Positions 5,816 through 40,783 of a DNA stretch of 47,279 nucleotides are shown in pieces. The stretch is from an uncultured Syntrophaceae bacterium (GTDB taxonomy: Bacteria > Desulfobacterota > Syntrophia > Syntrophales > PHBD01): positions 1-47,279 of the forward strand of contig CAZXMK010000001.1 in NCBI GenBank assembly GCA_964641935.1, given 5' to 3'. The notes under the pieces are model-generated. The model was given only the letters and a program-made list of their open reading frames with translations, ran no database searches and had not been told where the DNA came from. The position numbers and the translations under genes are program-made. Each line of letters starts with the position of its first letter. Within the stretch, counting starts at the first letter, position 1.

Positions 5816-6706
5816 TCATTCTCCTGCCGGAATTCCTGAAGGAGCACCCTTCTGACGCCTCTCGCGCCCGATTCGCTCCACCAGGGTCAATTCCCTTTCC
5901 GTCAAGTCCGATCCGGTAAAAGAAATCCCCCACTCCAGGATAAATGCATCTTCCAGGCAACGGCTCAGTGTCATTGGTGTTTCATCCCCTGCGGGCCGAT
6001 AATCACGAATGCAGGTCACCGAATCCGAAAGCGATCGGACCTGCGCCACAGAATCCCCGGTGGTACAGAGAATCTCCACAGTCCTTTCCGCGTTGAAACC
6101 GATCAGAATCGATCCGTGCTGGAGAAAAGCCCCCCCGGACCGTGCCTGGGCGCTGCCGCAGATCTTGCGGCCGTTTACAAGCAGCTCATAGCGCGACGGC
6201 TTGGCAAAGCAGGAAGCATTCATCAACGCCCCTGGTGAAGGCCTGCCTGATTCCGCATAATCCACCGGGATCCCCCAGTCCTTGAGAGCCCTGCCCAGGC
6301 ATCGGCTTATCGCAAGGTAGGTTTGCAGGATTCCGGGCTCAAAACGTCCTTCCTGGCGGGCGATCACGGCATAGGTCAGATCGTCCTCGTGCAGGACGGC
6401 CTTCCCTCCGGTGGGGCGACGAACGACGTCAATTCCGAAACGTCTGCAGGCGTCAAGATTGACATCTAAGTGGAGGTCCTGAAAATATCCAAGGGAAATG
6501 GATGGTCGACGCCACCCGTAGAATCGGATCGTCGGTGGCGAACGGTGGTCCTGAACTTCACGGAAAATGGCCTCGTCGATGGCCATGTTTTCGAATGCCG
6601 AGTGAACCTGATAGTGAAGGATTCTCCATGAAGACAAGGAAATCTCAGCCCGCCTCCCCTTCCTCGGCAATAAAGTCCTGGTATCCCCTGGCATCCAGAA
6701 GATCAT
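5816..6706 (-). CDS. Lipoate-protein ligase A / octanoyltransferase LipM-like (BPL/LplA/LipB catalytic domain)
   Basis: NMAIDEAIF ... PTIRFYGW ... RRPTGGKAVLHEDDLTY ... CFAKPSRYELLVNGRKICGSAQAR. The true start is uncertain: the ORF overlaps the end of gcvH, and an in-frame TTG at 6637 is an alternative. Confidence 0.75.
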   Translation of the reverse strand: MIFWMPGDTRTLLPRKGRRAEISLSSWRILHYQVHSAFENMAIDEAIFREVQDHRSPPTIRFYGWRRPSISLGYFQDLHLDVNLDACRRFGIDVVRRPTGGKAVLHEDDLTYAVIARQEGRFEPGILQTYLAISRCLGRALKDWGIPVDYAESGRPSPGALMNASCFAKPSRYELLVNGRKICGSAQARSGGAFLQHGSILIGFNAERTVEILCTTGDSVAQVRSLSDSVTCIRDYRPAGDETPMTLSRCLEDAFILEWGISFTGSDLTERELTLVERIGRERRQKGAPSGIPAGE

Positions 6707-7043
6707 CCAGTTCTTCGGGATCCTTCATGGCAACAACGATCATCCACCCCGTATCATGGGCGTCACTGTTGATGATTCCGATGTCATCGGACAGGTCTTC
6801 ATTGACGTGAACGACGTCACCCGTCACGGGAGAAATCAGCTCCACCACACCCTTTACCGCTTCAATGGTACCGAAGGGCTCATCCCGTTCAACCTCATCC
6901 TCTGGATCAGGCAATTCAATGGCATGCACTTCACCAAGCCTCTCCTGGGCGTAATCGGTGATCCCCACCGTTGCCAGGTCGCCTTCGACACGAACCCAGA
7001 GATGCTCCCGGCTATAGAACAAATCATCAGGAAATACTTTCAT
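6645..7043 (-). CDS. gcvH: Glycine cleavage system H protein (lipoyl carrier)
   Basis: YSREHLWVRVEGDLATVGITDYAQERLGEVHAIELP ... IEAVKGV contains the lipoyl-lysine motif. I prefer the start at Met23 of the track ORF (MKVFPDDL). Confidence 0.9.
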   Translation of the reverse strand: MKVFPDDLFYSREHLWVRVEGDLATVGITDYAQERLGEVHAIELPDPEDEVERDEPFGTIEAVKGVVELISPVTGDVVHVNEDLSDDIGIINSDAHDTGWMIVVAMKDPEELDDLLDARGYQDFIAEEGEAG

Positions 7044-7119: not shown

Positions 7120-8205
7120 CTACAGAATTTTCACTTCCTTTGGAACTCGGGAAAGGATCTCGATTCCATCGCGTTGGACCATCACCATTTCCTCAATCCG
7201 TATGCCCCATTTTCCCGGAAAATAAACGCCCGGTTCGACCGTTACCACCATCCCCTCTTCAAGCACCTCATCGGACCGTGATGACAGTCGGGGCGCCTCG
7301 TGAACGTCCAGTCCGACGCCATGCCCCGTTCCATGGGAGAAAAACGGTCCCCACCCGGCCCGTTCAATCCTCTGACGCGCCCTGCCGTCCACCTCCCTGC
7401 AGGGAACACCGGGACGGACTGCGTCCAGCGCCTCCAGAAGAGCCTCTCTCACAACCGTGTATGCCTTTTTCTTTTCCGGGTCCAATGGCCCCACGAAAAC
7501 CGTCACGGTCTCGTCGGAGCAATAGCCCTCGAAGATCGACCCGCAATCGATGATCACGGCATCACCGTCCTGAATGCGGCGAGGTCCCGGCGCAGCGTGC
7601 GGAAGCGCCGAATTTTCACCGGAAGCCGCTATGATCGGGAAAGAAGGGCCATCCGAGCCGTTCTTTCGCAGCAGGTACTCAAGTTCGGCAGCAAGCTCCC
7701 GTTCGCTCACTCCAGGCACGATCCGGGGGAAAAGTGCCATAACGGAATTCGAAGAAATGGCGGCGGCCCTCCGCATGAGATCGACTTCGCCATCCTCCTT
7801 GACAGCCCTGAGACGTTGAACTTCCTCTCCGAGGGGAGAAAGATTCCTGTCACCGGAGGATTTCTTCAAGGACAGGTAAAGATCCACGGACAGAGCGGAG
7901 GCGTCGAAGCCAAAGTCCCGTTGTCCTCCATCCGGTAATGCCTCCAGGAGACCCGTTACCTTGTCCTCGAACAGCCTGATCTCCACGCCGTCCGCCTGAC
8001 CGTCCGCCTGCGTTTTATAGCGGCCGTCCACCAGGAGAATCGTCCGATCAGGCAACAACAGGAGCACTCCATCACTTCCGGAAAAACCAGAAAGATAACG
8101 GATTGTACGCAGATTAAAAAAAACGATCCCGTCGAGATGGAGCTCCGGGAGCATAGATCGGACCCGGGCCTGCCGGTTACGGTGGGAACTGCCCTCACGT
8201 TCCAT
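7120..8205 (-). CDS. pepP: M24 family Xaa-Pro aminopeptidase/dipeptidase
   Basis: 361 aa with a creatinase-like N-domain. Metal ligand blocks are DCGSIFEGYCSDETVT, HGTGHGVGLDVHE and VTVEPGVY. Confidence 0.85.
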   Translation of the reverse strand: MEREGSSHRNRQARVRSMLPELHLDGIVFFNLRTIRYLSGFSGSDGVLLLLPDRTILLVDGRYKTQADGQADGVEIRLFEDKVTGLLEALPDGGQRDFGFDASALSVDLYLSLKKSSGDRNLSPLGEEVQRLRAVKEDGEVDLMRRAAAISSNSVMALFPRIVPGVSERELAAELEYLLRKNGSDGPSFPIIAASGENSALPHAAPGPRRIQDGDAVIIDCGSIFEGYCSDETVTVFVGPLDPEKKKAYTVVREALLEALDAVRPGVPCREVDGRARQRIERAGWGPFFSHGTGHGVGLDVHEAPRLSSRSDEVLEEGMVVTVEPGVYFPGKWGIRIEEMVMVQRDGIEILSRVPKEVKIL

Positions 8206-8869
8206 GGGATTTCAGCCTGTTAATATTATTGAGCCAGCGGGCAAGTTCCTCAGCCAGTCTCCTCCCCGAGCCTGCGCCTCCCCCTGCATGTTCTTTCGGA
8301 AGCGCTTCCAGTCTCATTCTGGCCTCCTCGTGATCCGGATCCCGCTTCAGGATATCTTCCAGAACGATCCGGGACATGTCCGAATGCCCCTGGCGGGCAT
8401 AAAGATCGGCCAGAGTTACAGTCCAGAACTGGCGGTCAATTTCTTCGATGCGGACATGAGGACGGTCCGAATCGTTTTCCGCCGACTGGTTCGGATTGCC
8501 AGCATCACTGATCCTGGCTGCAATCTCTTCCGCTTCGGATGCATCCGGATCAAGATACAGGAACTTCCGGTAAAAGCGGGCTGCATCGTCCAGACGTCCC
8601 TTCCTGGCAAAAGAGTCACCCGCCTCAAGATAGATTCTGGCTGTGAAACGAATCCAGCGATCAATTTCATGGATCCACTGCTCGGCGGCGTCCAGGTCAT
8701 CCATGCCCAGTAGAGCTCGGCAGAGGACAATTCTCCCCTCGATGTCGGACGGGAGGCGGGCCAGGTTCTCTTCCGCAAGCCGACGGGCACTGTCATAGCG
8801 ACCTTGCTCGAGCAGTAGTTCCGCTTCTTCCAGAAACAGAGAGCTTCCTTGAACGTCTCCTGGTTTCAT
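8195..8869 (-). CDS. Tetratricopeptide-repeat protein
   Basis: 224 aa with repeated A/L/Y-rich helical pairs (YDSARRLAEENL, YLEAGDSFARKGRLDDAARFYRKFLYLDPD, LADLYARQGHSDMSRIVLEDILKRDPDHEEA). Overlaps pepP by 11 nt. Confidence 0.6.
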   Translation of the reverse strand: MKPGDVQGSSLFLEEAELLLEQGRYDSARRLAEENLARLPSDIEGRIVLCRALLGMDDLDAAEQWIHEIDRWIRFTARIYLEAGDSFARKGRLDDAARFYRKFLYLDPDASEAEEIAARISDAGNPNQSAENDSDRPHVRIEEIDRQFWTVTLADLYARQGHSDMSRIVLEDILKRDPDHEEARMRLEALPKEHAGGGAGSGRRLAEELARWLNNINRLKSHGT

Positions 8870-9185
8870 CGATCAATGTATTCGAAATGCTTATGTTTTT
8901 AGCCACAAAATACGGCTCGGCGAACGCTAGCATAGCCCCCCCGGGGTGTCAAGGAGGAAATCTCCACAACTCAAGGAGATATGCGTGTCGATAAAGAGAG
9001 AAAGCCGCGGTTTGGTGAAAATGCCGACCAAATGGTGAAAACCCCCGGTTGTATTGCTTTCAAGCAGGTTATGATCGCCTTTGCAGAAAAATCCATACAT
9101 ATAATTACACCATATATTACAGTAGCTTCGGTACAGTGGAAATGAATGTGGGGGGTGATGGTCTGACAATTGCAGGGCTTGTCAC

Positions 9186-9284
9186 ACTGCCTGCAGAGGC
9201 AAACTGCCCGAAAGGGCAGGACGCAAAACCAGCGGCCTACGTCTTGAAAAGGATATGGTGGCAGGGTTGCCGGGCGACAGCAGT
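9186..9284 (+). promoter_or_regulatory. c-di-GMP class I (GEMM-I) riboswitch aptamer in the 5' leader of the dsbC-like/minor pilin/pilY1 operon
   Basis: P1 is ACTGC(C)TG 9186-9193 pairing with CAGCAGT 9278-9284. GGCAAA lies at 9198-9203. Hairpin CTGCCC-GAAA-GGGCAG spans 9204-9219. GACGCAAAACC lies at 9220-9230. The second hairpin carries CCTACG (9236-9241) and TATGG (9254-9258), resembling the 11-nt GAAA tetraloop receptor. The 3' core GGGTTGCCG lies at 9264-9272. The layout parallels the Vc2 aptamer as I recall it. Confidence 0.8.
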
Positions 9285-9483
9285 CAACAACATCTTTCCA
9301 ACCCCGGGGTATTCCCGTCGGCTGTCCGGAAATCCCGCCAATCGTCCTTCAAGCCGTTGCCTGAGACAAACCGAAGAGGCCGATTCGTTTACAGATACGC
9401 TTCTTGATTTTGCCGTTTGGATATGAGAATATTCACCTAATTTCAATCATATCCCTCCTCATAGGAGATCAAGGAGCATGCGA

Positions 9484-10281
9484 ATGACATCGTTTGAGCG
9501 GATCATGAGGCGAATTGTCCCGTTGATTCTTCTGGTACTCGTTTTCAGTCTGCCCGCTTCGGCAAACGGCCAGGACAAACCAGCGACAAAAGACCCCTGC
9601 GCGTCCATGACGGAAGCTGCTTTACATGATATTTTTGACAAGATTGCACCGGGTGGCGTGTCCATCCTTTCGCATCGCAAAAGTCCAGTGGACGGCTTCT
9701 GCGAAATCGCCCTCGGCAGCAAGATGAATCCGCAGATTGTCTATCTCGATTATGCGAAAAAATTTATCCTCGCAGGATCGATGTTCGATGCCCACAGCAT
9801 GACCAATCTCAGCCTGATATCGAAAAATGCGATTCAGGACCAGTTCCGGGTCGATGTTGCCAAGATCCCTCTGGACAATGCTTTATGGATGGGAAATGGA
9901 AAGGCAATAAAGAAAGTGATTGTATTTACGGATCCCGACTGCCCGTTCTGTTCCTCTCTTCACAAGACGCTGCATCAGATCGTAACCGAACGACAGGATG
10001 TGGCTTTTCTCATCAAGCTTCTGCCCCTGCCCATGCACAAGGATGCCTACTGGAAATCAAAGAGCATCCTCTGCAACCGCTCTCTGAAAATGCTGGATGA
10101 AGCCTTTGAAAAGAAAGAAATACCCCGGACTGACTGCGCAACGGATGAACTGGAAAAGAATCTCCAGTTTGCTCAATCTTTCGACTTTGGAACCCCCACG
10201 TTGATTTTCCAGGACGGCTCAGTTATTCCCGGGGCCGTACCGAAAGATGAACTGCTGAAAAAGCTGGATTCGAAGAAATGA
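9484..10281 (+). CDS. DsbC/DsbG-family periplasmic thiol:disulfide isomerase (secreted)
   Basis: Signal peptide ends LPASA|NG. It has an N-terminal dimerisation-type domain, a thioredoxin fold with the CPFC active site (DPDCPFCSSLH), and the cis-Pro loop GTPTLIF. ATG 9484 has AAGGAG 7 nt upstream; the track start 9478 is the alternative. Confidence 0.8.
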   Translation: MTSFERIMRRIVPLILLVLVFSLPASANGQDKPATKDPCASMTEAALHDIFDKIAPGGVSILSHRKSPVDGFCEIALGSKMNPQIVYLDYAKKFILAGSMFDAHSMTNLSLISKNAIQDQFRVDVAKIPLDNALWMGNGKAIKKVIVFTDPDCPFCSSLHKTLHQIVTERQDVAFLIKLLPLPMHKDAYWKSKSILCNRSLKMLDEAFEKKEIPRTDCATDELEKNLQFAQSFDFGTPTLIFQDGSVIPGAVPKDELLKKLDSKK

Positions 10282-10787
10282 CACCATTACATCGGCGAAG
10301 ATCATCCGGCTGCCAGGCTAAAGCAGTCGGGAGCACTCGCGAAGGTTTCCCTCCCAGGGGGTTCAGCCTCGCCGAACTCCTGATTGTCATTGCCATCATC
10401 GGCACACTGGCGGTCATCGCGGGGTACTCCTGGCAGCGCTATGTCACAAACGCCAATCTCCGGTCCGCTGCCCGCGAGATTGCCTCGGATTTCTCCGCAG
10501 CAAGGGAAAACGCCATCAAGGGAAGCCAGAACTACACGATCAACTTCGATGTGTCCGGCAATCAATACACGATCTCTCCGGGAGCAATAGTCAAGGCTCC
10601 CACATTCTTCGGCTCGGATATCCGCCTCACGGCCGCCAATTTCGGACTCGGGGGCACGACCATCACTTTTTTTTCAAGAGGGACAGCCTCGGCAGGGAAC
10701 GTGTCGCTTGTAAACAGTCGCGGGTCCACAGCACAGATCATAGTAAACATTACAGGAAAGAACTATGTCCAGTTTGCGACGCAATGA
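10278..10787 (+). CDS. fimT: Type IV pilus minor pilin, FimT/GspH-like
   Basis: Prepilin motif PRG|FSLAELLIVIAIIGTLAVIA with Glu at +5, plus a GspH-like body (LRSAAREIASDFSAARENAI). Its ATG overlaps the dsbC-like stop as ATGA. Confidence 0.75.
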   Translation: MTPLHRRRSSGCQAKAVGSTREGFPPRGFSLAELLIVIAIIGTLAVIAGYSWQRYVTNANLRSAAREIASDFSAARENAIKGSQNYTINFDVSGNQYTISPGAIVKAPTFFGSDIRLTAANFGLGGTTITFFSRGTASAGNVSLVNSRGSTAQIIVNITGKNYVQFATQ

Positions 10788-11205
10788 GCGGGGAATCGGC
10801 CTCCCGGAGGTCATCATCGCCATTTTTCTGACCACCATCGGCGTTCTGGCCATTCTATCCCTGCAGCCCTCTGCATGGAGAACGGTCGGACGATCCGATT
10901 TCCTGGGCCGGGCGGCGGAGATCCTCTACAAAGAGATGGACACCCGTGAAACCTGGATCATGAATCCTTGCAACGCCGTGACAGCGGGAACCACGACTTC
11001 AGCCGTCAAAACCAGCGGCATGGCCGGAACGATCGCCGGGGACGCCACGTACACGGTGTCCACGACGATCACCAACATCGGGACCGGCGTCTGGCGGGTT
11101 ACGGTCCGTGTAACCTGGCCGATCAACCAGACCGGAATCTCGGAGAGCCTGGTGGTCACAAGGCAGGAGAAATTCCGATTCCCGGAGGGGTGTCCAAGCG
11201 TATGA
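10765..11205 (+). CDS. pilV: Type IV pilus minor pilin PilV-like
   Basis: NERG|IGLPEVIIAIFLTTIGVLAI (Glu+5). 146 aa, AGGAAAG Shine-Dalgarno, overlaps the end of fimT by 23 nt. Confidence 0.75.
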   Translation: MSSLRRNERGIGLPEVIIAIFLTTIGVLAILSLQPSAWRTVGRSDFLGRAAEILYKEMDTRETWIMNPCNAVTAGTTTSAVKTSGMAGTIAGDATYTVSTTITNIGTGVWRVTVRVTWPINQTGISESLVVTRQEKFRFPEGCPSV

Positions 11206-11924
11206 GAGAACAGAAGGGTTTTACCCTCATTGAATTGCTGATCACGCTGGTCATCGCCGTCATCCTCATGATGGCGATCTACGGGGCAATCAACACTGCA
11301 CAGCGATCCACCCAGGGGATCGAGCGGAAGGTGACGGCCCAGCAGGACGCCCGCGCCGCCCTGGAACTGATGGCCATGGAGATTCGCATGGCGTCGTACA
11401 ACCCGAATGTTGTCACGAATCTCTGGGTCGACCCGGGTAACTGCTTCAGTGCGAGTGGAAACCAGACCTACCAGGGCATCCAGGCGGCGACCAACAATCT
11501 CATGACGATCGAGATGGACATTAACGAGAACTCCGTCATTACGAACAACACCAACACGGATCCCAACGAAACGATCGCCTACGTCTATGACGCAGCCAAC
11601 CAATATATAACCAGGACAACCAACTGCGGCACTGCGCAGCCGTTTCTCGGAGAAACCGCAGCCAGCGGCCGCCCCCGGACGGTCCGGGTCATCAATGACG
11701 TCAACGGAAACGGTGCGTACGACACAGGCGTGGATATTCCCGTGTTTCGTTATTACAACGGGAGCGGGACCGAACTGGTCAACTTCCCGGCAGATATCCC
11801 GAACATCCGGAGGATCGACATAACGCTGGCGGTGGAGACGGCGGAAATCGATCCCATGACGAACCAGAGGAGACGCCTTGTCTACTCAACCAGTGTTACT
11901 CCGAGGAACCATGCTGCCAACTGA
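11202..11924 (+). CDS. pilW: Type IV pilus minor pilin PilW-like
   Basis: Start is at Met79 of track ORF 10968..11924: MREQKG|FTLIELLITLVIAVILMMAIYG (Glu+5). It overlaps the pilV stop as ATGA. The part of the ORF upstream of this Met overlaps pilV in another frame. Confidence 0.8.
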   Translation: MREQKGFTLIELLITLVIAVILMMAIYGAINTAQRSTQGIERKVTAQQDARAALELMAMEIRMASYNPNVVTNLWVDPGNCFSASGNQTYQGIQAATNNLMTIEMDINENSVITNNTNTDPNETIAYVYDAANQYITRTTNCGTAQPFLGETAASGRPRTVRVINDVNGNGAYDTGVDIPVFRYYNGSGTELVNFPADIPNIRRIDITLAVETAEIDPMTNQRRRLVYSTSVTPRNHAAN

Positions 11925-12399
11925 TTCGAAGCATCGGCAATATTTTCCGTCAGAACGCGGGTTTGCAATGGTGGCGGCCATTATGGCCTGCCTGATCCTT
12001 TTGGCCATCGGCATGCTGGTCATTCACCTGTCCACGGGGGATTTGCGGACCAGCGCGATGACCGTGGGGGACAAAAAGGCCCTCGCCGCCGTGGAGACAG
12101 GTATACACCGGCTCATGCAGACCTTCGACCCGGAAAACCTGTCGGCAACGACGTCCAGCACCCAGGTGGATTCGAGCAACGACCCGAATTCCTTCTATTC
12201 CATCGGAGCCGCAGTTGCACCCACTTCGGGCCCCTCCATCATCCCCATGGCAGGGTTTGCGATCGGCGGAGGACAACAATGGGGACAGGCCCGTTTTAAT
12301 GTCGATATTACAGGAAGGAACACCACGTACAACTCTACCGTCACGGTCGGGATCGGCCTCGGCTACGGCCCGGTGGAGATCAGCCTGATGCACCGTTAG
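11911..12399 (+). CDS. pilX: PilX-like minor pilin (no Glu at +5)
   Basis: SERG|FAMVAAIMACLILLAIGMLVIHLSTGDLRTSA ... KKALAAVETGIHRL matches the PilX N-terminal pattern. ATG 11911 has GAGGA upstream; the track start 11878 is the alternative. Confidence 0.65.
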   Translation: MLPTDSKHRQYFPSERGFAMVAAIMACLILLAIGMLVIHLSTGDLRTSAMTVGDKKALAAVETGIHRLMQTFDPENLSATTSSTQVDSSNDPNSFYSIGAAVAPTSGPSIIPMAGFAIGGGQQWGQARFNVDITGRNTTYNSTVTVGIGLGYGPVEISLMHR

Positions 12400-12413: not shown

Positions 12414-15400
12414 ATGAAGCGTTCGGCGTGTTTTCTATTGATGTTGTTTGTTTGCCTGGTCCTGCCGCTGGCGGCAAACGCCCAGGAGGATGAGGCGGAC
12501 GAGTCCGCTCTGTTCACCTCTCTGGCGCCGGACGCCCTGATCATTCTCGACCTTTCGGGAAGCATGAACTGGACGGCCGCCGGGGAGACAATGTATGCAT
12601 CCTCCTGTACATCCAGTGCGGCATATTACAACGACTCCGGCACAGGACATACAACGGCGTGCACCATCAGCACCTCCAGTGTTCCCAAATATGGAAACTC
12701 AACTTGCAGCGGACCCTTTTACAAGACAAGCCAGACGGGTTACACAACCGACTGCAGCCGCCTCGCCATCGCCAAACGGGGGCTCTTCGAAATCCTGGAT
12801 GACAACGGGGACAATACCATCAACCTTCAAGACTCCAACAGCCTCGGAATCCGTCTCGGCTACATGCGCTACTACAATTGCGGCTCCGACGAAAGCGGCG
12901 ATTACTCAAGCGGCTGCAATAAAGTCCTGAAATCCATCGACACCAAATACAGCTCCATCTATTGCGGCAAAACTTCAAGCTGCTCGACCACCGATGTCGG
13001 ATCGAGCTCTACCATCTCCGGCGCATCCGCCACCGGCGGAACGCCGTTGGCGGGCGCCCTGACGGAAGCGAAGGCCTATCTGGATTACCACAAAAATACG
13101 GACAGCGCGGCCCTCTGCCGCTCGAAATTCGCCCTCCTGATCACCGACGGTGCCGACACCTTTGCCTGTAGCGGTGACGGCTCTGAAACACAGAAAGACC
13201 AATATAAGCGCCGGAGGGCCTTCGCGGAAAAAGCGCGGGCGCTTTCCGCCGCCGGCTACCGCACCTTCGTGATCGGATTCGGGGCAGCCATGCCCCACTA
13301 CCTGAAGAACACCCTGAACTGGGCCGCCTACCTCGGCGGCACCGACAACCCCCAGGCGACCAATACGGGAGACCCGACAGCCTACACCGAGGTGACATCC
13401 CCATGTACGACCGTAACGGTCACCAGTGGCAGCCAATGCCTCGCCACGGCGGATTACAATGCGGCGAATTCCATCTGTTACCACACCCTCACCGGTGAAG
13501 AGGGCCATTACTACTCCCCCAACGATCCCGGTGAACTGTCCCTCTCCGGGTATGCCTTCATCGCCTCGAACCCGGCCGAACTCTCCACAGCCCTGAAAGC
13601 GGCCTTCACGATCATTCGCGAGGCCACCTATTCCTTTTCACAGGCCTCCGTCCAGTCGACCCGGACGCAGGACGAAAACTACATCTATGAAGGCTCCTTC
13701 CAACCCGTTACAAACGATCCCTTCTGGCTTGGACACCTGAAGAAATACAACATCAACACCGACGGAAGCGTCGGCAGCGTGGTCTGGGATGCAGGAACCA
13801 TTCTCCAGTCGAGGGGGGCCGACACCCGGACCATGTACACATACGTGGGAGGAGCCCTGACGTCTTTTACAACAAGCATCGCCAGAAGCTATTTCAACGC
13901 CGATTCCGACGCGGAACGGAACATGATCGTGGGATATCTGCGGGGTGAATCGGCATACAATTTCGATTACTGGAAGCTTGGGGACGTGTTCCGCTCCAAT
14001 CCGATCACCATCAGCACTCCATCATCCTTTTTCAACGACACCCGTGACGCCAACAACGCTTTCTCCACGTTCCGCTCCGGCCACGCCAGGACGTCCGCTA
14101 TCGGGAACCGTGTCATCCTCGCCGGGGCCAACGACGCCCAGATGCATGCTTTCAAGACAAGCGACGGTTCGGAGGCTTGGAGCTTCATTCCTCCCAATTT
14201 CATGTACCGCCTCAAGTCCCTCGCCCATTCGTCCCATCCCACCCTGCTGGCACACGCCTATTACGTAGACGGGCAGGTAACCGTGTCCGAATACTGGACA
14301 GGCAGCGGCGACGGCACCAGCAAGACGTCGACCGACTGGAAGACCATCCTCGTATTCGGCCTGGGACGAGGCGGTAGTTCGACCCTCTGGAGTTCATCCG
14401 CTTCCTGTGACACCGGCTTCAACTCAACCTACAGCACAACGTACTCCAATTATTGCGGTTATTACGCTTTGAACGTAACGAATCCGCTGACCCCGACATA
14501 CCTGTGGCGCATCATGCCCACGAGCACTCAGGCACCATACCTGGGAGATCCCTGGAGCCGCATGCAGATCGGGCGCGTCAGCGTCCTGGGCAATGAGAAA
14601 TGGGTGGGGTTCATCGGGGGCGGTTACAATGCATCCGACTGCTCCGGCGGCGGCACCTGCGATGCCCGGGGCAAGGGATTCTACGTCATCGACCTGGCGG
14701 ACGGTACCGTCCTGTGGAGTTACACCCGGTCGGACAACACGAACATGAACTACAGCCTACCGGCACCTCCGGCCATCGTCGATACGGACAACGACAACTT
14801 CATCGACACGGTCTATATTGGAGATCTGGGTGGAAGCATGTGGCGCTTCAAGATGTGCTCCGCGTCGGACTTGGCCAGCAGCCCCTACTGCACGACATCG
14901 AGCTGGTCAGGAAGCTTTCTTTTTGGCGCCTCCACCGGAACCATAAGACCCATTTTCACGAGTCCCGCCATCGCGAAAGACAAGCAGAACAACCTCTGGA
15001 TATACTGGGGCACGGGTGACAAGTCGGATCCGACGGCGTCCAACGCACAGGAAAAATTCTTCGGCCTCAAGGACAATGACCGGACGACATCATACGCGAT
15101 CAATGACCTGGACAATATTACAACGGGAACCTACGACACCGCCTCGACCACAAAGAAAGGGTGGTACATCAACCTCGCCGGCCAGGGTGAAAAGATGCTG
15201 GCCGACCCCACGGTCTATGGAGGCGTCGTTTATTTCACATCCTATACGCCCCCGGTCGGAAACGACATCTGTTCCCAGGCGGGCACTGCCACACTCTACG
15301 GTGTGAACTACACAACGGGCGGTGCAGCCCTGACGACCAGTACTGGAACAGCCCGCAGCATCACACTCGGCGTGGGGATCCCCTCAGCACCTGTCATTTC

Positions 15401-15554
15401 CTTAAAGCCAGGGTCGTCGCCGGTACCGGATCTCTACGTGACCGTCAGCGGCGGTGCCGGAACAGGCGCCAGTACAATGCGGGCAAACATCAATCCCGTA
15501 TCGCCTTCCAACCGGACAAACATGCTCTATTGGAGAGACCGGCGCCTGCAATAG
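12414..15554 (+). CDS. pilY1: PilY1-like type IV pilus tip adhesin with an N-terminal von Willebrand A domain and a C-terminal PilY1 propeller
   Basis: 1046 aa with a Sec signal peptide (PLAANA|QE). The vWA MIDAS is DLSGS (12549-12563), GGTPLAGAL and LITDGAD. The C-terminal half has WSFIPP, DGTVLWSY and the calcium loop DTDNDNFID (14781-14807), followed by YIGDLGGSMWRF. GGAGGAG Shine-Dalgarno. Confidence 0.85.
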   Translation: MKRSACFLLMLFVCLVLPLAANAQEDEADESALFTSLAPDALIILDLSGSMNWTAAGETMYASSCTSSAAYYNDSGTGHTTACTISTSSVPKYGNSTCSGPFYKTSQTGYTTDCSRLAIAKRGLFEILDDNGDNTINLQDSNSLGIRLGYMRYYNCGSDESGDYSSGCNKVLKSIDTKYSSIYCGKTSSCSTTDVGSSSTISGASATGGTPLAGALTEAKAYLDYHKNTDSAALCRSKFALLITDGADTFACSGDGSETQKDQYKRRRAFAEKARALSAAGYRTFVIGFGAAMPHYLKNTLNWAAYLGGTDNPQATNTGDPTAYTEVTSPCTTVTVTSGSQCLATADYNAANSICYHTLTGEEGHYYSPNDPGELSLSGYAFIASNPAELSTALKAAFTIIREATYSFSQASVQSTRTQDENYIYEGSFQPVTNDPFWLGHLKKYNINTDGSVGSVVWDAGTILQSRGADTRTMYTYVGGALTSFTTSIARSYFNADSDAERNMIVGYLRGESAYNFDYWKLGDVFRSNPITISTPSSFFNDTRDANNAFSTFRSGHARTSAIGNRVILAGANDAQMHAFKTSDGSEAWSFIPPNFMYRLKSLAHSSHPTLLAHAYYVDGQVTVSEYWTGSGDGTSKTSTDWKTILVFGLGRGGSSTLWSSSASCDTGFNSTYSTTYSNYCGYYALNVTNPLTPTYLWRIMPTSTQAPYLGDPWSRMQIGRVSVLGNEKWVGFIGGGYNASDCSGGGTCDARGKGFYVIDLADGTVLWSYTRSDNTNMNYSLPAPPAIVDTDNDNFIDTVYIGDLGGSMWRFKMCSASDLASSPYCTTSSWSGSFLFGASTGTIRPIFTSPAIAKDKQNNLWIYWGTGDKSDPTASNAQEKFFGLKDNDRTTSYAINDLDNITTGTYDTASTTKKGWYINLAGQGEKMLADPTVYGGVVYFTSYTPPVGNDICSQAGTATLYGVNYTTGGAALTTSTGTARSITLGVGIPSAPVISLKPGSSPVPDLYVTVSGGAGTGASTMRANINPVSPSNRTNMLYWRDRRLQ

Positions 15555-16040: not shown

Positions 16041-17804
16041 TTATCCTTCTGATGCCGCCGACACAGGCTCGACGTAAGCCGTATCCGTCGAATTGATGAT
16101 CTTCGGCGTGACAAAGATAAGCAACTGCGTTTTCTTCTTCGTGATGTCTTCCGTCTTGAAAAGCCAGCCCAGAACAGGGATCTTATGGATCCATGGAACC
16201 CCCGTTACAGCCTCCGTGTCCGTGGTTTTCATGATTCCGCCGATGACGATCGTATCCCCGTCCCTCACGACAACCGTGGATTCGATCTCACTCTTGTTGA
16301 TCGGAGGGTTGTTCTGCAGGCTTGCGGCCCGGGCATAGTCGGCGTAGTCGTTGGACGCCTTGATCTCCATCGAAATCTTTCCGTCCGGCGTGAGCCGGGG
16401 TTTCACCTCGAGCTTCAGGACCGCTTCCTTGAAGGATACCGTGGCCGGACTGGTTGAAGATGCCGGCGTCACGTAAGGTACATCCTCCCCCTGCTTGATG
16501 ATAGCCTTGACATTGTCCATGGTTGTGATCTTCGGAGAAGAAATAATGCGGGTCTCGCTGATGGTTTCACTGGCGGCAAGCTGCACGTCCAGAACCGCCT
16601 TGGAGCTTCCCAGGACGATACCGAGCGTCGGAGATGTTATGGTTGACGCCATGGGCAGGAAATTCACGGCCAGGGCCTCGCTGGTAAGGCCTATCCCCGT
16701 GGGCGGAGTCGTCACGAGAGACTTCAGCAGGGAAGGGTTGGTTCCCCCCGCAACACCATAAGGATAGTTATTTGCAGCACCGAATCCGGTACCGCCGGCC
16801 GCCCATTGAACGCCCAAATTCCGGATGAAACTGTCCGTCGTCTCGATGATCTTCGCTTCAATGGACACCTGCCGCAGCCGGCCCTTCTCGACGAGCTGTT
16901 TCTGTTCTTCCTCCTTGCGGGCCAGTTCGGATTTCCTCTGTTCTTCCTCAATGGCCTTCCTGTCCGCTGTTTCCTTTTTCAACTTCTCCTGGGTAATGAT
17001 GGAGATGACATCACCCGATTCCTTCTTCGTCAGGCTGTTCAGGGAGAGGATTGTGTCCAGGGCCTGATCCCATGGAACATTCTTAAGGGTAATCGTCACG
17101 GTCCCTTTGATGTCCTCAGCCGACACGATGTTTTTCCCGCTCACCTCGGAAAGAAGGCGAAAGACGGAGCGGATATTGGCGTCCTGGAAATCGATGGATA
17201 TTCGCTGGCCTGCGTATTTCTGCTTTTCCCCGTCCGTCGTATCAAGATCATAAGATTTTGCGAACTGGACCGGTTTGGGTTCCGCTGGTGCCTGCCCGAG
17301 AAGAAGTGCCTTACTGGAAACCGGCGGCTTCGTCGACACCGACGGCTTTGCGATCGGTGCGGAAGGCTTAGCGGTTGGTCCGGAGTACTTCGCGAACGCC
17401 AGCGTGGTCACATTGAAATCTACAAGTATGGAGCGGCCGCTTTGCCTGACGACGAACGGGACCCGCTCCTTCAGGCTGACATCCACAGCGACCCAGCTTT
17501 GGCTTCCGGACCCTTTCCCGTCAGCGTCAATGCTCTTGATGTTGTCTAACTCTCCCGCTCCATGGGTCCGCTTGAGCTTGTCCGGCACGGAAGCCCCTTC
17601 CAGCCGAATTCGCACAACGTTTCCATCCCGTTCCTCCACCGTGAATGAAGCGGGTTTCGATACCAGGATATTGACCCGCTCCTTACCGGTCGGATGATCG
17701 AATGTGATGCCTTCCAGCACAGCCGGATCGGCGGCATTTCCTCCAGGCAGAAGGACGGCCAGTACAAAGAAAACGACGAGTAGTCCCTCAATCAATCGCT
17801 TCAT
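16041..17804 (-). CDS. pilQ: Type IV pilus secretin PilQ (AMIN domain plus secretin)
   Basis: 587 aa with a signal peptide, an AMIN-like N-domain (RVNILVSKPASFTVEERDGNVVRIRLEGASV) and a secretin C-terminus (VVVRDGDTIVIGGI ... GVPWIHKIPVLGWLFK ... LLIFVTPKII). Confidence 0.9.
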   Translation of the reverse strand: MKRLIEGLLVVFFVLAVLLPGGNAADPAVLEGITFDHPTGKERVNILVSKPASFTVEERDGNVVRIRLEGASVPDKLKRTHGAGELDNIKSIDADGKGSGSQSWVAVDVSLKERVPFVVRQSGRSILVDFNVTTLAFAKYSGPTAKPSAPIAKPSVSTKPPVSSKALLLGQAPAEPKPVQFAKSYDLDTTDGEKQKYAGQRISIDFQDANIRSVFRLLSEVSGKNIVSAEDIKGTVTITLKNVPWDQALDTILSLNSLTKKESGDVISIITQEKLKKETADRKAIEEEQRKSELARKEEEQKQLVEKGRLRQVSIEAKIIETTDSFIRNLGVQWAAGGTGFGAANNYPYGVAGGTNPSLLKSLVTTPPTGIGLTSEALAVNFLPMASTITSPTLGIVLGSSKAVLDVQLAASETISETRIISSPKITTMDNVKAIIKQGEDVPYVTPASSTSPATVSFKEAVLKLEVKPRLTPDGKISMEIKASNDYADYARAASLQNNPPINKSEIESTVVVRDGDTIVIGGIMKTTDTEAVTGVPWIHKIPVLGWLFKTEDITKKKTQLLIFVTPKIINSTDTAYVEPVSAASEG

Positions 17805-18304
17805 GGTTTCACCCCTTCATCCTTGTGAAGCAGAATCGGAATCCGCTTCGCTTTCACCTTTCCCCCGCCCTCTCGCAACCTCTCTTCCACGATGATCCGA
17901 TCGGCCAGGATCTCCACCACACGGCCATCGTTTTGACCAATGTACGTGCCTGGCACCACGGGATAAAACTTCTTGGCGATTTTATCCTCCATCATGGCGA
18001 CACGACTGGCTTTGCCAACGGCAATACCCACCAGGGAAAACTGTTCCAGAGACAGATTCTGCAACGGGGAGATGGGGCCCGCTTTCCGGCGGCCGGTTGT
18101 CTTTTGGACCACCAGCGGCTTGTTCAGCTCGATAAAGGGCTTGAACGGATCCGGCTTCCCCGCCGGCACATACCGGTACGTCTCCACCGGAACCTGCGGC
18201 TGCGGAACCGGCTGCACCGCCGTCTGGGTCCATCCGTCGGCCGCCATCATCAAAACCACTCCGCAGGCGGCTATTCCCATGCAGCTAAGGTTTTTTCTTT
18301 TCAT
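17801..18304 (-). CDS. pilP: Type IV pilus assembly protein PilP
   Basis: 167 aa with a signal or lipoprotein-like N-terminus, the KPDPFKPF motif and a beta-domain. Position between pilO and pilQ, with a 4-nt overlap onto pilQ. Confidence 0.8.
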   Translation of the reverse strand: MKRKNLSCMGIAACGVVLMMAADGWTQTAVQPVPQPQVPVETYRYVPAGKPDPFKPFIELNKPLVVQKTTGRRKAGPISPLQNLSLEQFSLVGIAVGKASRVAMMEDKIAKKFYPVVPGTYIGQNDGRVVEILADRIIVEERLREGGGKVKAKRIPILLHKDEGVKP

Positions 18305-19004
18305 CGGCTTTATCCAGAAACATGTATGTCTTGATGATGCAGGATGTTGTAAGGACCCTCTGACCTTTAAGATCCTTTCCCTCTCCCATGGTTATTTCCT
18401 CGATATTCACGATTCGCGGAAGCTTGGCCACCTTGTCGAAGAAGACGGCCGCACTGTGAAACGGGCCGTTCACGGAGACCTTTACGGGGATTTCCTCATA
18501 AAACGATACCGGCTCAGCCTGTTTCCCCTTTGCTCCCTTGGCCGGCTGCCCCGCCTTTGCATCCGGAGTCTTCTGTTCCGCCCGCTGGTCGGAAGGCTTC
18601 AGATTCTGGACGACCTGCGGCTGTGTCTCTGTTTTCTTCTCCGGAGCCTTCGGTTCAAAGAGAACAAACTCAACCCCCGCCTCCTTTCCGGCTTCCGCAA
18701 CAGCCAGGAAAAGTCCGGGGATTTCTCGCTGGTTCGGAAGCTTGGTAAGAGCCAGCTGGTATGCCTCCTTGAGGGCCTGCACTTCCTTTATGAACTTATC
18801 CCTCTGCTTGGCGATACGGTCTTTCTCGTCAATCTGCTGATCCAGGGTCGCCTTCTTTTCTTCCAGTCCCTTCTTCTTCTCCAGAGCGCCTTCCATGTAA
18901 AAGAACCAGAAAAAATACCCCAGCAGGAGAAGGACCGCGCAAAGAATTCCGATCTTTGCCGGCATGGACAACTTCTTCAGATCCTCCAGGGACGACAGGG
19001 CCAT
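18285..19004 (-). CDS. pilO: Type IV pilus assembly protein PilO
   Basis: 239 aa with a single TM helix, a coiled coil, LPNQREIPGLFLAVAEAG and a ferredoxin-like C-terminal domain. A low-complexity Lys/Pro/Gln insert is present. Confidence 0.85.
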   Translation of the reverse strand: MALSSLEDLKKLSMPAKIGILCAVLLLLGYFFWFFYMEGALEKKKGLEEKKATLDQQIDEKDRIAKQRDKFIKEVQALKEAYQLALTKLPNQREIPGLFLAVAEAGKEAGVEFVLFEPKAPEKKTETQPQVVQNLKPSDQRAEQKTPDAKAGQPAKGAKGKQAEPVSFYEEIPVKVSVNGPFHSAAVFFDKVAKLPRIVNIEEITMGEGKDLKGQRVLTTSCIIKTYMFLDKADEKKKP

Positions 19005-19007
19005 GGC

Positions 19008-19556
19008 TCACATGCTCCTTCTGGTGATGCACTTCAGGGTGAATTGCTGCAGTTTACGGCCGGTGAGATCTTTCTGCTTAGATGAGACGAGATCGACAGA
19101 CTTGATGAATGAAGCCGTTTCAAGACTTTTCATGAATCTGGCAACGGCAATACTGTCCACGGCCATTCCCTCGATGGTCAGATTCGTCCCTGCTTCTGTA
19201 ATCTTTTCGAGCCAAATCTCTTTTACCGGAACCAGGGATGTAAACTGGTCCAGCATTCGCACGGGATAAAGACGGTTCTCCTCCAGCTTCTGGATAATGG
19301 AGAGTTTTTTCTCCATCAGCGACTTATCGGCCTTGAACGTTTCCACCTCGCCGACAATTTTGTTCAGAACCGCAAGTCTTTGTTCATTATTTGCAATATC
19401 CGATTCAAGGCCGCTCGTTGTTATGATCATGTAGGCAGCCACGGAACCCAGGAGGACAAGAAACAGGAGAATAACTCCGGCATAAACGAACAACTCCGCT
19501 TTCGTGTCCTCTTTTTTCTTCTTCTCAACGTATGGGAGCAGATTGATGCGGATCAT
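19008..19556 (-). CDS. pilN: Type IV pilus assembly protein PilN
   Basis: Begins with the canonical MIRINLLP motif, followed by one TM helix and a coiled coil. Confidence 0.9.
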   Translation of the reverse strand: MIRINLLPYVEKKKKEDTKAELFVYAGVILLFLVLLGSVAAYMIITTSGLESDIANNEQRLAVLNKIVGEVETFKADKSLMEKKLSIIQKLEENRLYPVRMLDQFTSLVPVKEIWLEKITEAGTNLTIEGMAVDSIAVARFMKSLETASFIKSVDLVSSKQKDLTGRKLQQFTLKCITRRSM

Positions 19557-20632
19557 TAGTCGCCAATCCTCCTCAATGCGAGACCCACCCCTACCGCGGC
19601 AATCGAGGCAATGCGATCCATGGTATCCGGATCCAGCTTCTTCCTGTTGATGCCGATCTTCCGGAAGGGATTGACAATCTCGGTTTCAATGTTGAGTCTC
19701 TGATACAGTTCTCCAGCTAGTCCCGGCAGGTTGGCTCCTCCGCCGGAAAGAATGATCTTCTTAATGGATGCGCCTCCATAAGAGGACTGAAAATATTCAA
19801 TGGATCGTTCAATCTCCAGGATCAGGGGCTCTGCAAAGGAAAGAAGACTGGCCATGACCTCACGTCGGGCAGCGTCGTCGAAGGCCATCTTCCCGGCCTT
19901 GACCTGTTCCGCTTCTTCGAACGTCAACCCGAACCGCTCTTGAATCGCCTCCGTTACGGCATTCCCTCCAAGCGTGAAATCGCGTGTAAAAACAGAGGTT
20001 GCGCTTTTGATGACGCTTATATTGGTGATGGTCGCCCCAATATTTACAATAACGACCATCTCGTTTTCCTGATAGTCGTAATTCTCTTCGTACATGGTCT
20101 CCAGGGCGAAGGAATCAACGTCCATGATTGCCACGGAGAGGCCCGCGTCCATAAGGGCATCCACGAAGCTGTTGACCGCCTCTTTCTTGGCGGCAACAAT
20201 AAGAACATCCATCTGGTTCGGATTGTATTCGGAGGCCCCAAGGATCTCGAAGTCAAAATTGATATCATCCATGTTGTCGAAGGGAAGGTACTTGGCTGCT
20301 TCATCCCGGATCAGCTCGCGAAGTTCCTCCTCTTCCATGGTGGCAAAATTGACTTTCTTCACGATCACGGAATGGCCGGACAGGGATGTAACAATCGCTT
20401 TCTTGCTGCAGCCGGAATTTTTAAACAGTTCTTTAACTTTTTCGGTGAGGGCTCTCTGGTCGACCAGCAAGCCGTCGACGATAATGCCTCTGGGAAGGGG
20501 GATCTGAGAAAAGTGATTTAAAAGATATCCATCGGCGGAATCCAGAACTTCCACCAGTTTCAGTGAACTGGACCCGATATCCAGTCCCACAACCTGTTTC
20601 TTTCCTGCAAACAAGTTTCTGATATCGAACAT
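19556..20632 (-). CDS. pilM: Type IV pilus assembly ATPase-like protein PilM (actin fold)
   Basis: 358 aa. VGLDIGSSSLKLVEV ... IVNIGATITNISV ... LSGGGANLPGL matches the PilM/FtsA-like pattern. Confidence 0.9.
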   Translation of the reverse strand: MFDIRNLFAGKKQVVGLDIGSSSLKLVEVLDSADGYLLNHFSQIPLPRGIIVDGLLVDQRALTEKVKELFKNSGCSKKAIVTSLSGHSVIVKKVNFATMEEEELRELIRDEAAKYLPFDNMDDINFDFEILGASEYNPNQMDVLIVAAKKEAVNSFVDALMDAGLSVAIMDVDSFALETMYEENYDYQENEMVVIVNIGATITNISVIKSATSVFTRDFTLGGNAVTEAIQERFGLTFEEAEQVKAGKMAFDDAARREVMASLLSFAEPLILEIERSIEYFQSSYGGASIKKIILSGGGANLPGLAGELYQRLNIETEIVNPFRKIGINRKKLDPDTMDRIASIAAVGVGLALRRIGD

Positions 20633-34028: not shown

Positions 34029-34103
34029 TGGAGCGGGCGATGGGAATCGAACCCACGACGTTCAGCTTGGGAAGCTGACATTCTACCTCTGAATTACGCC
34101 CGC
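34029..34103 (-). tRNA. tRNA-Gly (anticodon CCC), CCA encoded
   Basis: Hand fold: acceptor GCGGGCG/CGCCCGC, D stem AUUC/GAAU, anticodon stem UCAGC/GCUGA with loop UUCCCAA, T arm GUGGG-UUCGAUU-CCCAU, discriminator U, 3' CCA. Total 75 nt. Confidence 0.92.
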
Positions 34104-39278: not shown

Positions 39279-40526
39279 TTACTGGTTCATGGAATCCAGG
39301 AACAACTGGTTCGTATCGGTCTTCCGGATCTTGTCGATGATGAACTCCATGGCATCCAGGGGATTCATCTCCTGGAGGAGCCTGCGCAGGATCCAGACCC
39401 GGTTCAGATTGGTCTTTGCAATCAGGAGCTCTTCCTTGCGGGTTCCGGAGCGGATCAGGTCGAAAGCCGGGAAGATGCGGCGGTCGGCGATGCGGCGGTC
39501 CAGGTGCAGCTCCATATTACCGGTTCCCTTGAACTCCTCGAAGATGACCTCGTCCATCCGGCTTCCCGTGTCGATGAGAGCCGTGGAGATGATGGTCAGG
39601 CTTCCGCCGTTTTCAATATTTCGGGCCGCGCCGAAGAAGCGCTTCGGCTTGTGGAGGGCGTTGGAATCGACACCGCCTGAGAGGACCTTCCCGCTGGGCG
39701 GAACCACCGTGTTGTACGCCCGGGCCAACCGGGTGATGCTGTCCAGTAAAATGACCACGTCGCGCTTGTGCTCCACGAGCCGTTTCGCCTTCTCGATGAC
39801 CATCTCCGCCACCTGGACGTGCCGGGTGGCCGGTTCGTCGAACGTGGAGGAGATGACCTCCCCCTGGACGCTCCGCTGCATGTCCGTGACTTCCTCCGGC
39901 CGCTCGTCGATGAGCAGGACCATGAGGATCACTTCCTTGTGGTTCTTGGCGATGCTGTGGGCGATATCCTGCAGGAGAACCGTTTTCCCCGCCCGGGGGG
40001 GGGACACGATCAAGCCCCGCTGTCCTTTCCCGATGGGCGTGAACAGGTCCATGATGCGGGTCGAAAAGTTCTCCGAATCCGATTCAAGGGCCAGCTTCTC
40101 CTGGGGGTACAACGGTGTCAGGTTGTCGAAAAGGATCTTGTCCCGGGCGGCGTCGGGGTGTTCGTAATTGACGGAATCGACCTTCAGCAGGGCGAAGTAC
40201 TTCTCGCCCTCTTTGGGAGGCCGGACCTCTCCGGAAATCGTGTCGCCGGTCCGCAGGCTGAAGCGCCGGATCTGGGAAGGGGATACATAGATGTCGTCGG
40301 GGCTGGGAAGATAGTTGTAGTCCACGGCGCGAAGGAATCCAAACCCGTCCGGAAGGATCTCCAGAACGCCGGTTCCGGAGATGACGCCATTCTTGTCCGA
40401 CTGTGCCTGCAGGATGGAAAAGATGAGGTCCTGCCGCCGCATGCCTCCGGCGCCCGGCACGTTGAGATCCTTTGCCAGGCCGGCCAATTCGCTGATGGGG
40501 AGTCTCTTGATTTCCTCGATGTTCAT
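39279..40526 (-). CDS. rho: Transcription termination factor Rho
   Basis: Start [21 protein letters not shown]. Also has the RNA-binding domain, Walker A (PPRAGKT), and [30 protein letters not shown]. Confidence 0.96.
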
Positions 40527-40783
40527 GTCGATTTCCTTTCCGTGTCGCTGCACGGATTCAGCCGGAACGCCGTCATGCGCCGACACGCGTGACTGTTCCC
40601 GGCACCATGATTCCCACTGTCTTCAAGTGGAATTGGCCATGTGTCAGAAATACGAATCTGGATTAGAACCGGTTTGCCAATTGGAACGCTGGAAACACTT
40701 GAAAAGGGAGGCTTAGACGTTACCTTTCAAAATTCCCGATTCCCTCTACCCGATGCCCTATAATGTGTCAAGGGATTTTTATC

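Follow-up and report, generated by a model that had tools for sequence, protein, structure and literature searches.

A predicted class I c-di-GMP riboswitch in the leader of a minor pilin and PilY1 operon of an uncultured Syntrophales bacterium

The 47,279-nt stretch of DNA analysed here, hereafter the window, comes from an uncultured Syntrophaceae bacterium and carries a cyclic di-GMP (c-di-GMP) class I aptamer (c-di-GMP-I, or GEMM-I) in front of an operon encoding minor pilins and a tip adhesin of the type IV pilus. The aptamer, including its P1 helix, occupies 9188-9276 on the + strand, as delimited by its match to Rfam family RF01051, by our own covariance model and by pairing over 13 homologs. 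The sequence quoted for it in an earlier, sequence-only reading of this DNA was found at 9186-9284 (+), inside the 608-614-nt gap that separates a divergent TPR-repeat gene (8195-8869, - strand), which forms the upstream border, from the first gene of the operon. This first gene (9484-10281, +) encodes a DsbC-family periplasmic disulfide isomerase with a CPYC motif, recognized by Pfam DsbC_N and Thioredoxin_2; its NCBIfam DsbC match falls below the equivalog cut-off, and 33 homologs keep the CxxC motif without exception. Conservation points to the Shine-Dalgarno (SD) sequence AAGGAG at 9471-9476 and to the start codon ATG at 9484-9486, ATG 9484 being kept in all relatives and ATG 9478 being lost in the related locus L084. 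Four prepilin-type minor pilin genes follow on the same strand (10278-12399), which overlap or abut, show matches to Pfam N_methyl and to GFxxxE domains in NCBIfam and are called as genes in relatives. They are GspH/FimU-like (10278-10787; Pfam GspH), PilV-like (10765-11205; a weak NCBIfam PilV match), PilW-like (11202-11924; prepilin-type) and PilX-like (11878-12399; a weak Pfam PilX_N match). Next comes the gene of a PilY1/PilC-type pilus tip adhesin of 1046 aa (12414-15554, +), with a partial NCBIfam PilC match and a match to the Pfam T4P_PilY1 beta-propeller of 61 bits against a cut-off of 28.1. A pilMNOPQ operon (PilM, PilN, PilO, PilP and the PilQ secretin) lies at 16041-20632 on the - strand, convergent with the minor pilin and PilY1 operon.

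Relatives of this locus consist of syntenic loci from species-representative genomes (L001-L013) and of metagenome contigs (L081-L088), the latter with DsbC homologs at 62-96% identity. By their labels, the closest homologs of the DsbC-like protein belong to Syntrophales, Syntrophaceae or Smithellaceae, and the contigs of related genomes come from Syntrophales metagenome-assembled genomes. Together they provide 13 non-redundant aptamers (window, L081/82, L001/88, L083, L084, L086/87, L012, L004, L006, L007, L008, L010 and L013), and they split into a window clade, with six leaders including that of the window, and a distant clade.

The RF01051 cmsearch which the sequence-only reading had proposed as a check returns a match at 9188-9274 (+) of 69.9 bits, the gathering score being 35, over model positions 1-87 of 87 and with an E value of 8.6e-12 for the whole window. 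When the window was scanned with all 4227 Rfam models, two matches reached the gathering score, RF01051 and one tRNA, with no family match upstream of pilMNOPQ nor elsewhere in the window; the tRNA is a tRNA-Gly(CCC) gene at 34029-34103 (-). In a permissive search of 8850-9500, RF01051 came out at the top of its clan, above the variant families. The c-di-GMP-II class gave no match at gathering score in the window and none at E values up to 5 in 8850-9500. The sole extra match in the intergenic region, cow-rumen-1 with an E value of 3.4, is at chance level and was discarded. Rfam's own RF01051 model also gives 64-81 bits for 9 of the 10 relatives tested, and the covariance model that we built from seven aptamers and ran over 89 sources (1.1 Mb in total) scores the window aptamer at 119 bits. 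A metagenome scan with the invariant 14-mer GGCAGGGTTGCCGG hit at least 80 loci and, among the matches listed, only L167 is GEMM-I, with unrelated neighbours.

The elements expected of such an aptamer follow one another along the + strand. The GGCAAAC strand (9198-9204) leads into P1a (9199-9224), in which the pairs G9199-C9224 and C9200-G9223 close a 6-bp hairpin at 9204-9219 that reads CUGCCC-GAAA-GGGCAG, with the GAAA tetraloop at 9210-9213. The junction GACGCAAAA (9220-9228) is followed by the P2/P1b hairpin (9227-9268), which contains CCUACG at 9236-9241, a GAAA loop at 9246-9249 and UAUGG at 9254-9258, and then by GGGUUGCCG (9264-9272). Thus the GCAAA strand, the GAAA-capped hairpin, the ACGCAAA junction, the second hairpin resembling a tetraloop receptor and the 3' core were all located in the blocks where the sequence-only reading had placed them. 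The receptor-like motif, CCUACG/UAUGG in the window, has CCUAAG or CCUAAA in the distant clade. In the window's clade, P2 could also shift its register through G9232-C9262 and C9233-G9261.

Comparison between relatives supports this fold. The alignment of the 13 aptamers was fitted to our own model, which biases its counts towards structure; the Rfam scores do not depend on it. Standard pairs occupy 90.3% of the cells, and 33-45% once the partners are slid by 1-3 columns. Eight pairs display compensatory changes, and none of 500 column shuffles reached the observed pairing or covariation, in agreement with the covariation expected earlier for the hairpins. P1a is paired in 100% of cells, with compensatory changes in four of its six hairpin pairs, and the two helix parts of P2 are paired in 90.8% and 90.4%. 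These compensatory changes maintain the helices across relatives in which DsbC is only 43% identical to that of the window. By every testable sequence criterion, the element is a genuine canonical class I c-di-GMP riboswitch aptamer and a member of RF01051, as had been claimed.

The closing helix is the part of the earlier description that we would revise. The pairing proposed there, ACUGC(C)UG with CAGCAGU (9186-9193 with 9278-9284), can form in the window, as it does in L081 and L001, but only the three closest genomes favour it. L083 and L084 disrupt two or three of the seven pairs, and across relatives only 77.6% of the cells are paired. A more proximal helix, in which UGCCUG (9188-9193) pairs with CGGGCG (9271-9276), reaches 92.9% over seven sequences, its 3' strand beginning directly 3' of the equivalent of C92, and is preferred here as P1. 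This proximal P1 exists in all 13 homologs with compensatory differences: in the distant clade it becomes (A)GUCC/GGAC(U) at the same place, C-G being replaced by U-A and U.G by A-U between the clades.

The equivalents of three ligand-contact bases of Vc2, the type member of RF01051, were placed with the Rfam alignment: G20 at G9198, the unpaired G before the G-C and C-G pairs; A47 at A9225, the first A after the ACGC pairs; and C92 at C9270, the first C after GGGUUG. They are invariant in 13/13 aptamers. For A47 and C92, the mapping onto model positions 38 and 83 relies on the Vc2 sequence and is probable, and the ligand-contact role of A47 is likewise taken from Vc2 and presumably holds here. 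G20 reads one guanine (G-alpha) of c-di-GMP on its Hoogsteen edge and C92 pairs with the other guanine, while riboswitches for cyclic GMP-AMP (cGAMP) have A at position 20 (PMC6140456). Given this rule and the invariance of the three bases, c-di-GMP would be the expected ligand, favoured over cGAMP. The sequence-only reading came to the same preference from a G just 5' of CAAA: the base is indeed a G, G9198, but it stands two bases 5' of CAAA and is not adjacent to it.

That the aptamer would instead be a variant, of GEMM-Ib or GGC/UAU type, sensing 3'3'-cGAMP or another dinucleotide appears very improbable to us, although this reading has a phylogenetic appeal, cGAMP-sensing GEMM-Ib aptamers being abundant in Geobacter, among the related Desulfobacterota (PMC6456294, PMC8835794). 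GEMM-Ib is marked by an A at position 20, where the window and its 12 relatives without exception have a G; the canonical bases also stand at A47 and C92, and wild-type Vc2, with its G20, discriminates against cGAMP even though bispecific natural GEMM-I aptamers exist (PMC6140456). In RF03167 (c-di-GMP-I-GGC), G replaces A47 within the consensus GACGCGAAG; the window has GACGCAAAA, and its score with RF01051 exceeds those with the variant families. The case of L012 is the closest to such a variant: its aptamer (L012 6576-6666) has its best match in RF03167 (66.3 bits, gathering score 59), ahead of RF01051. It reads GACGCAGAG, with A47 retained and a G at the next position.

The aptamer is on the same strand as the operon, about 200 nt upstream of the DsbC-like start codon, and this association is shared by its relatives. 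As judged by tblastn with the window proteins, the aptamer loci have a common layout, with an M24 peptidase gene and the TPR gene in divergent orientation, then DsbC, the GspH/FimU-, PilV-, PilW- and PilX-like pilins, and PilY1. Every full-length aptamer that our own model found in the 89 sources stands before a DsbC homolog of a Syntrophales locus. Such aptamers precede the operon in 8 of the 9 Syntrophales species-level loci that have it, and none was found at DsbC homologs without pilins (L002, L005, L009, L011 and about 65 loci of Nitrospirota and other phyla). The aptamer therefore appears to track the pilin operon and not the DsbC homolog alone, which agrees with the assignment of this region, in the sequence-only reading, to the leader of the disulfide isomerase, minor pilin and PilY1 operon.

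Downstream of the aptamer, no intrinsic terminator was found in the leaders of the window, L012 or L013; inspected by eye, the weak hairpins before the U-rich CUUGAUUUU are neither GC-rich nor conserved. Instead, the RNAalifold consensus of five leaders points to an anti-aptamer strand, GUCGGCUGUCCGGAAAUCCCGCC (9317-9339, +), in which 9332-9335 would pair with 9264-9267 (3' strand of P2), 9326-9329 with 9270-9273 (C92 and 3' strand of P1) and 9317-9325 with 9280-9288 (linker). In unconstrained minimum free energy folds, this pairing displaces P2 and P1 of the aptamer in 13/13 leaders, and a CCC(U)GCC element is present 43-61 nt 3' of the aptamer in 11 of them. Support for the anti-aptamer strand is moderate, in view of the comparison with shuffles given below. 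RNAalifold also proposes an anti-SD strand, GCUUCUUGAUUUU (9399-9411, +), which does not vary within the window's clade, forming 13 bp with the GGAGAUCAAGGAGC-type strand at 9465-9477 and burying AAGGAG. The duplex z-scores of this helix range from -2.3 to -3.7 in 6/6 window-clade leaders, and the SD-side changes in L084 and L086 are uncompensated. An attenuator-like chain of 1:2, 2:3 and 3:4 pairings, built on two CUUGA and two UCAAG elements, was considered and set aside, the 2:3 pairing having a z-score of about 0 in every clade; the P2b:UCAAG pairing is significant in the window alone.

The stretch 9281-9350 (+) is C-rich and G-poor (C 0.39, G 0.19) and, compared with all 70-nt windows of each locus, belongs to the top 0.1-2.7% in the six window-clade loci and to the top 3-15% in the distant clade. 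Over about 120 nt after the aptamer, C/G is 1.5-1.9, and 1.0-1.4 in the distant clade. A part of this C bias arises because the tract is complementary to the G-rich half of the aptamer.

On the other side of the aptamer, the window clade has a -24/-12 element of sigma-54 type, TGGTCTGACAATTGCA (9159-9174, +). Its pattern TGGTC(T/C)(G/A)ACA(A/T)TTGCA is near-invariant in 6/6 leaders of this clade, with variable flanks. Sigma-54 promoters have GG and GC elements at an exact -24/-12 spacing, in the consensus TGGCAC-N5-TTGCW, and activator sites about 100-150 bp upstream. Judged from its sequence, the element would set the transcription start at about 9184-9187, some two to four bases before P1. 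Two direct repeats of TGGTGAAAA, 20 bp apart (9013-9021 and 9033-9041, +), were detected with a repeat finder and stand at -169 and -149 from the aptamer in all six window-clade leaders; they are a possible site for an enhancer-binding protein. Between these repeats and the sigma-54-like element lies an AT-rich stretch (about 9095-9125), as in enhancer-dependent promoters. An inverted repeat, GTCTGACAA (9161-9169) and TTGTCACAC (9179-9187), overlaps the element and the predicted start; it may represent an operator or have arisen by chance. Most distant-clade leaders are devoid of the sigma-54-like element. L004, L006, L010 and L013 have TAAAG-N15/16-(G/C)CCGATA, 63-94 nt upstream of the aptamer, a sequence that resembles the sigma-28 (FliA) promoter consensus, and L008 has TGGCATATTAATTGCT in its place. 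The promoter type before the same riboswitch seems to differ between the clades. Small open reading frames over the leader (9049-9426, with a 96-aa call in L081) were not retained, this region aligning with indels and being explained by the RNA and promoter elements.

Between the aptamer and the start codon, conservation reveals a box, CTTGATTT-N10-ATATGAGA (9403-9428, +), that resembles a promoter, with a -35-like TTGATT at 9404-9409, a 17-nt spacer ending in TG-n (TG at 9424-9425) and a weak -10-like GAATAT at 9427-9432. Searched as the 26-nt pattern CTTGATTT-N10-RTRTGR[GC]A on both strands of 1.82 Mb, it has 16 matches, and 16/16 are in leaders of the pilus tip operon (window, L001, L003, L004, L006-L008, L010, L013, L081-L084 and L086-L088), 64-82 nt from the start codon in every case. 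Three parts of the pattern never change, namely the -35-like hexamer, the TG and the second base of the -10, an A, whereas N10 is variable. Among single interpretations of the box we prefer an internal promoter of sigma-70 type, with a likelihood that comes near to even; in the window's clade, the 5' part of the box would at the same time serve long transcripts as their anti-SD strand. L003 is instructive in this respect. It has the full operon, but its aptamer (about 6700-6800) has decayed: its 5' half, GUCCUGUAAAAGGCAAACUGUCCGAAAGGAUG..., can still be recognised, but nothing is left of the ACGCAAA junction, the 3' strand of P2 or C92, and it is matched by neither Rfam nor our own model. Since L003 kept the operon and the box, the riboswitch is dispensable there and therefore not the only control of the operon.

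We suppose that the following elements together provide the best explanation of the leader, and hold this with good confidence: a canonical aptamer (9188-9276) at the 5' end of the tip operon mRNA, a competition between aptamer and anti-aptamer, and an output that does not pass through an intrinsic terminator. Transcripts carrying the aptamer would probably start at the sigma-54-type promoter (9159-9174). Binding of c-di-GMP would lock P1 (9188-9193/9271-9276) and P2, and keep the 3' half of the aptamer (9260-9276) off the anti-aptamer strand (9317-9339); in the free state, these two would join in a long alternative helix. Such a switch would toggle the single-strandedness of the C-rich stretch of about 70 nt. 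The output could be exerted on dsbC translation through the 13-bp SD-burying helix (9399-9411/9465-9477), in the window clade only, which we consider plausible but somewhat short of an even chance. What is left after this route and the less likely Rho-dependent one discussed below would fall to other routes, or to none. In addition, the box at 9403-9428 may provide a basal expression independent of the riboswitch, in which case control by c-di-GMP would be limited to the long transcripts made on induction. Among published class I switches, both directions of response and several mechanisms occur (PMC6366702, PMC11218506); therefore the sign cannot be transferred from them, and the choice between ON and OFF is close to a coin flip.

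Several observations weigh against this proposal. The anti-aptamer duplex is clearly above dinucleotide shuffles in only 6 of the 13 leaders. In the distant clade, the z-scores of the SD helix are close to 0, so that it is confined to the window clade, where the unpaired probability of the SD (0.12-0.24) shows no consistent change between free and aptamer-forced folds; moreover, an anti-anti-SD pairing was searched in the leaders and none was found. At the promoter, the sigma-54 pattern occurs in the window at chance level (2 found, 2.45 expected), and the window contains no rpoN or enhancer-binding-protein gene. Within the aptamer itself, P2 of the window clade has the non-canonical oppositions G9232.G9264 and C9233.A9263, at which the distant clade shows C-G and U-A. 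Finally, the box is intact in L003 in spite of the decay of the aptamer. The claim of the sequence-only reading that the riboswitch gates the whole tip complex consequently stays a hypothesis: there is no terminator, SD accessibility is unchanged, and a promoter-like box stands between the aptamer and the start codon.

This box is at the centre of an alternative in which the aptamer is functional without gating the whole operon, most expression coming from an internal sigma-70-type promoter with a start at about 9439 and the riboswitch modulating only read-through or translation of the long transcripts. We regard it as a serious possibility, a little below even. It would explain why the box is exclusive to these leaders, at a fixed position relative to the start codon, why N10 is free to vary between constant promoter-like positions, and why the box is kept both in the distant clade, which offers it no SD partner, and in L003. 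L012, which has no CTTGATTT box, offers TTGTTA-N17-TATAAT at the equivalent place, but at chance level (1 found, 1.3 expected). On the other hand, the -10-like hexamers are poor (GAATAT, GACGAT, CATAAC) with their last T not conserved, and the window box fails the stricter sigma-70 criteria of the promoter tool. In the window clade, the anti-SD helix accounts for the same bases, and the conservation of the box would be explained equally well by a protein operator or by a site acting at the RNA level. Alternatively, the output could depend on Rho: the c-di-GMP-bound state would free the C-rich 9281-9350, on which Rho would load and stop transcription before dsbC, making an OFF switch. Riboswitches that act through Rho have been described for Mg2+ and FMN, the window itself carries a rho gene (39279-40586), and both the missing intrinsic terminator and the excess of C over G directly 3' of the aptamer in the six window-clade loci are compatible with this route. 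It is nevertheless an unlikely one in our view, as complementarity to the aptamer accounts for most of the C bias, the tract is weak in the distant clade, and rut sites are not reliably predictable from sequence.

Far less probable still is that the aptamer would be an evolutionary relic without regulatory effect in this genome. Loss of the aptamer with the operon kept does occur, in L003, and GEMM-I copies without effect on downstream expression are documented with Bc1 (PMC11218506) and with non-functional copies in C. difficile (PMC6366702); the lack of a predicted structural coupling to the SD goes in the same direction. But the core and the ligand-contact nucleotides of the window copy are all intact and its helices are maintained by compensatory changes in relatives as divergent as 43% identity in DsbC, unlike the L003 copy, which shows what relaxed selection produces. 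The features of the leader could also be assembled into a composite Syntrophales control region, an idea that we put forward tentatively and consider rather unlikely as a whole. An alternative-sigma promoter, which in the window clade would be of sigma-54 type and accompanied by activator repeats and in the distant one sigma-28-like, would launch a long leader with a terminator-less GEMM-I riboswitch acting through the SD helix or Rho, and an internal housekeeping promoter, its -35 doubling as anti-SD, would ensure a basal expression blind to the riboswitch. If this were true, c-di-GMP would gate only a signal-induced burst of tip complex synthesis, and in syntrophs this could link contact with a surface or a partner to aggregation by means of pili or to interspecies electron transfer.

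Elsewhere the window contains housekeeping genes (infB, truB, pnp, rho, selA, hisD, aroA and prmC-like genes). At the other end of the intergenic region, a block GGCGAACGCTAGCATAGCCCCCCCGGGGTGTCAAGGAGGAAATC (about 8920-8965) beside the divergent TPR gene is near-invariant in five aligned leaders and may be the promoter of the TPR gene or an additional activator site. Within this tract, a TCAAGGAG repeat is found at 8949-8956 and 8971-8978.

The RNA class, the ligand logic and the link with motility and pili are already established; what is new is the example and its target. The find leaves general knowledge of riboswitches unchanged and would not surprise a specialist. Its value is local: it offers a testable RNA-level link from c-di-GMP to the priming and tip complex of the type IV pilus, together with a dedicated DsbC-like folding helper, in a lineage, the uncultured Syntrophales, whose regulation is scarcely known and whose pili are discussed for aggregation and interspecies electron transfer. 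Moreover, the platform without terminator, the box within the leader and the decayed copy of L003 make a convenient system to study how GEMM-I is wired without termination. The sequence-only reading had singled out the target as the notable point. This stands insofar as a minor pilin and PilY1 target had not previously been highlighted, no description of a riboswitch before such an operon having been found in the literature searched, the coverage of which is incomplete. It is less surprising than supposed in view of the precedents in Geobacter (PMC6456294) and at pilA1 (PMC6366702).

Among known systems, Vc2 of Vibrio cholerae is the natural reference for the aptamer. Both share the three-helix architecture, the GAAA (GNRA) tetraloop of P1a docking on a receptor-like motif of P2, the GGCAAA and ACGCAAA junction strands, and G20, A47 and C92; the two class I switches of V. 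cholerae are also without intrinsic terminator (PMC6366702). The window differs by its receptor, CCUACG and not CCUAAG, by the two non-canonical P2 pairs of its clade, by its target genes, by its expression platform of about 200 nt and by its Syntrophales host.

For the genomic context, the nearest case is Geobacter, where pilus assembly genes are preceded by GEMM-Ib (cGAMP) riboswitches, among them GSUR3013 before GSU2033-pilMNOP (PMC6456294). Like the window element, GSUR3013 of Geobacter sulfurreducens is a riboswitch of GEMM-I fold placed before type IV pilus genes in a deltaproteobacterial lineage (PMC6456294), and pilMNOPQ, the kin of its target, adjoins the locus described here. However, the Geobacter element is a GEMM-Ib with A at position 20, activated by cGAMP, whereas position 20 is G in the window. 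The targets are also reversed, the alignment subcomplex pilMNOP in Geobacter and the minor pilin and PilY1 operon here: for the pilV/W/X/Y1 operon of G. sulfurreducens (GSU1063-1066), the supplement of that study lists neither a riboswitch next to it nor a response to cGAMP (PMC6456294).

In Clostridioides difficile, Cdi-2-4 likewise lets c-di-GMP act on the mRNA leader of type IV pilus genes, but it has the class II fold, precedes the major pilin gene pilA1 and, in its Gram-positive host, switches expression ON by means of a terminator (PMC6366702). Bc1 of Bacillus thuringiensis resembles the window in combining a class I aptamer with a long and complex platform that has transcription- and translation-level elements; this platform contains a site for a DNA-binding protein and its response to the ligand is not simple (PMC11218506). 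In contrast to the window leader, where none was found, Bc1 has two intrinsic terminators, and the hosts and targets are unrelated.

In Pseudomonas aeruginosa, the fimU-pilVWXY1E operon is under the control of FimS-AlgR, and PilY1 feeds into c-di-GMP synthesis. The same kind of operon, minor pilins with PilY1, is thus presumably tied to c-di-GMP surface signalling in both organisms. The window operon differs by being headed by a DsbC-like gene and, above all, by the direction of the link: whereas in P. aeruginosa PilY1 acts on c-di-GMP via proteins, here c-di-GMP would act back on the mRNA of the operon via an RNA sensor.

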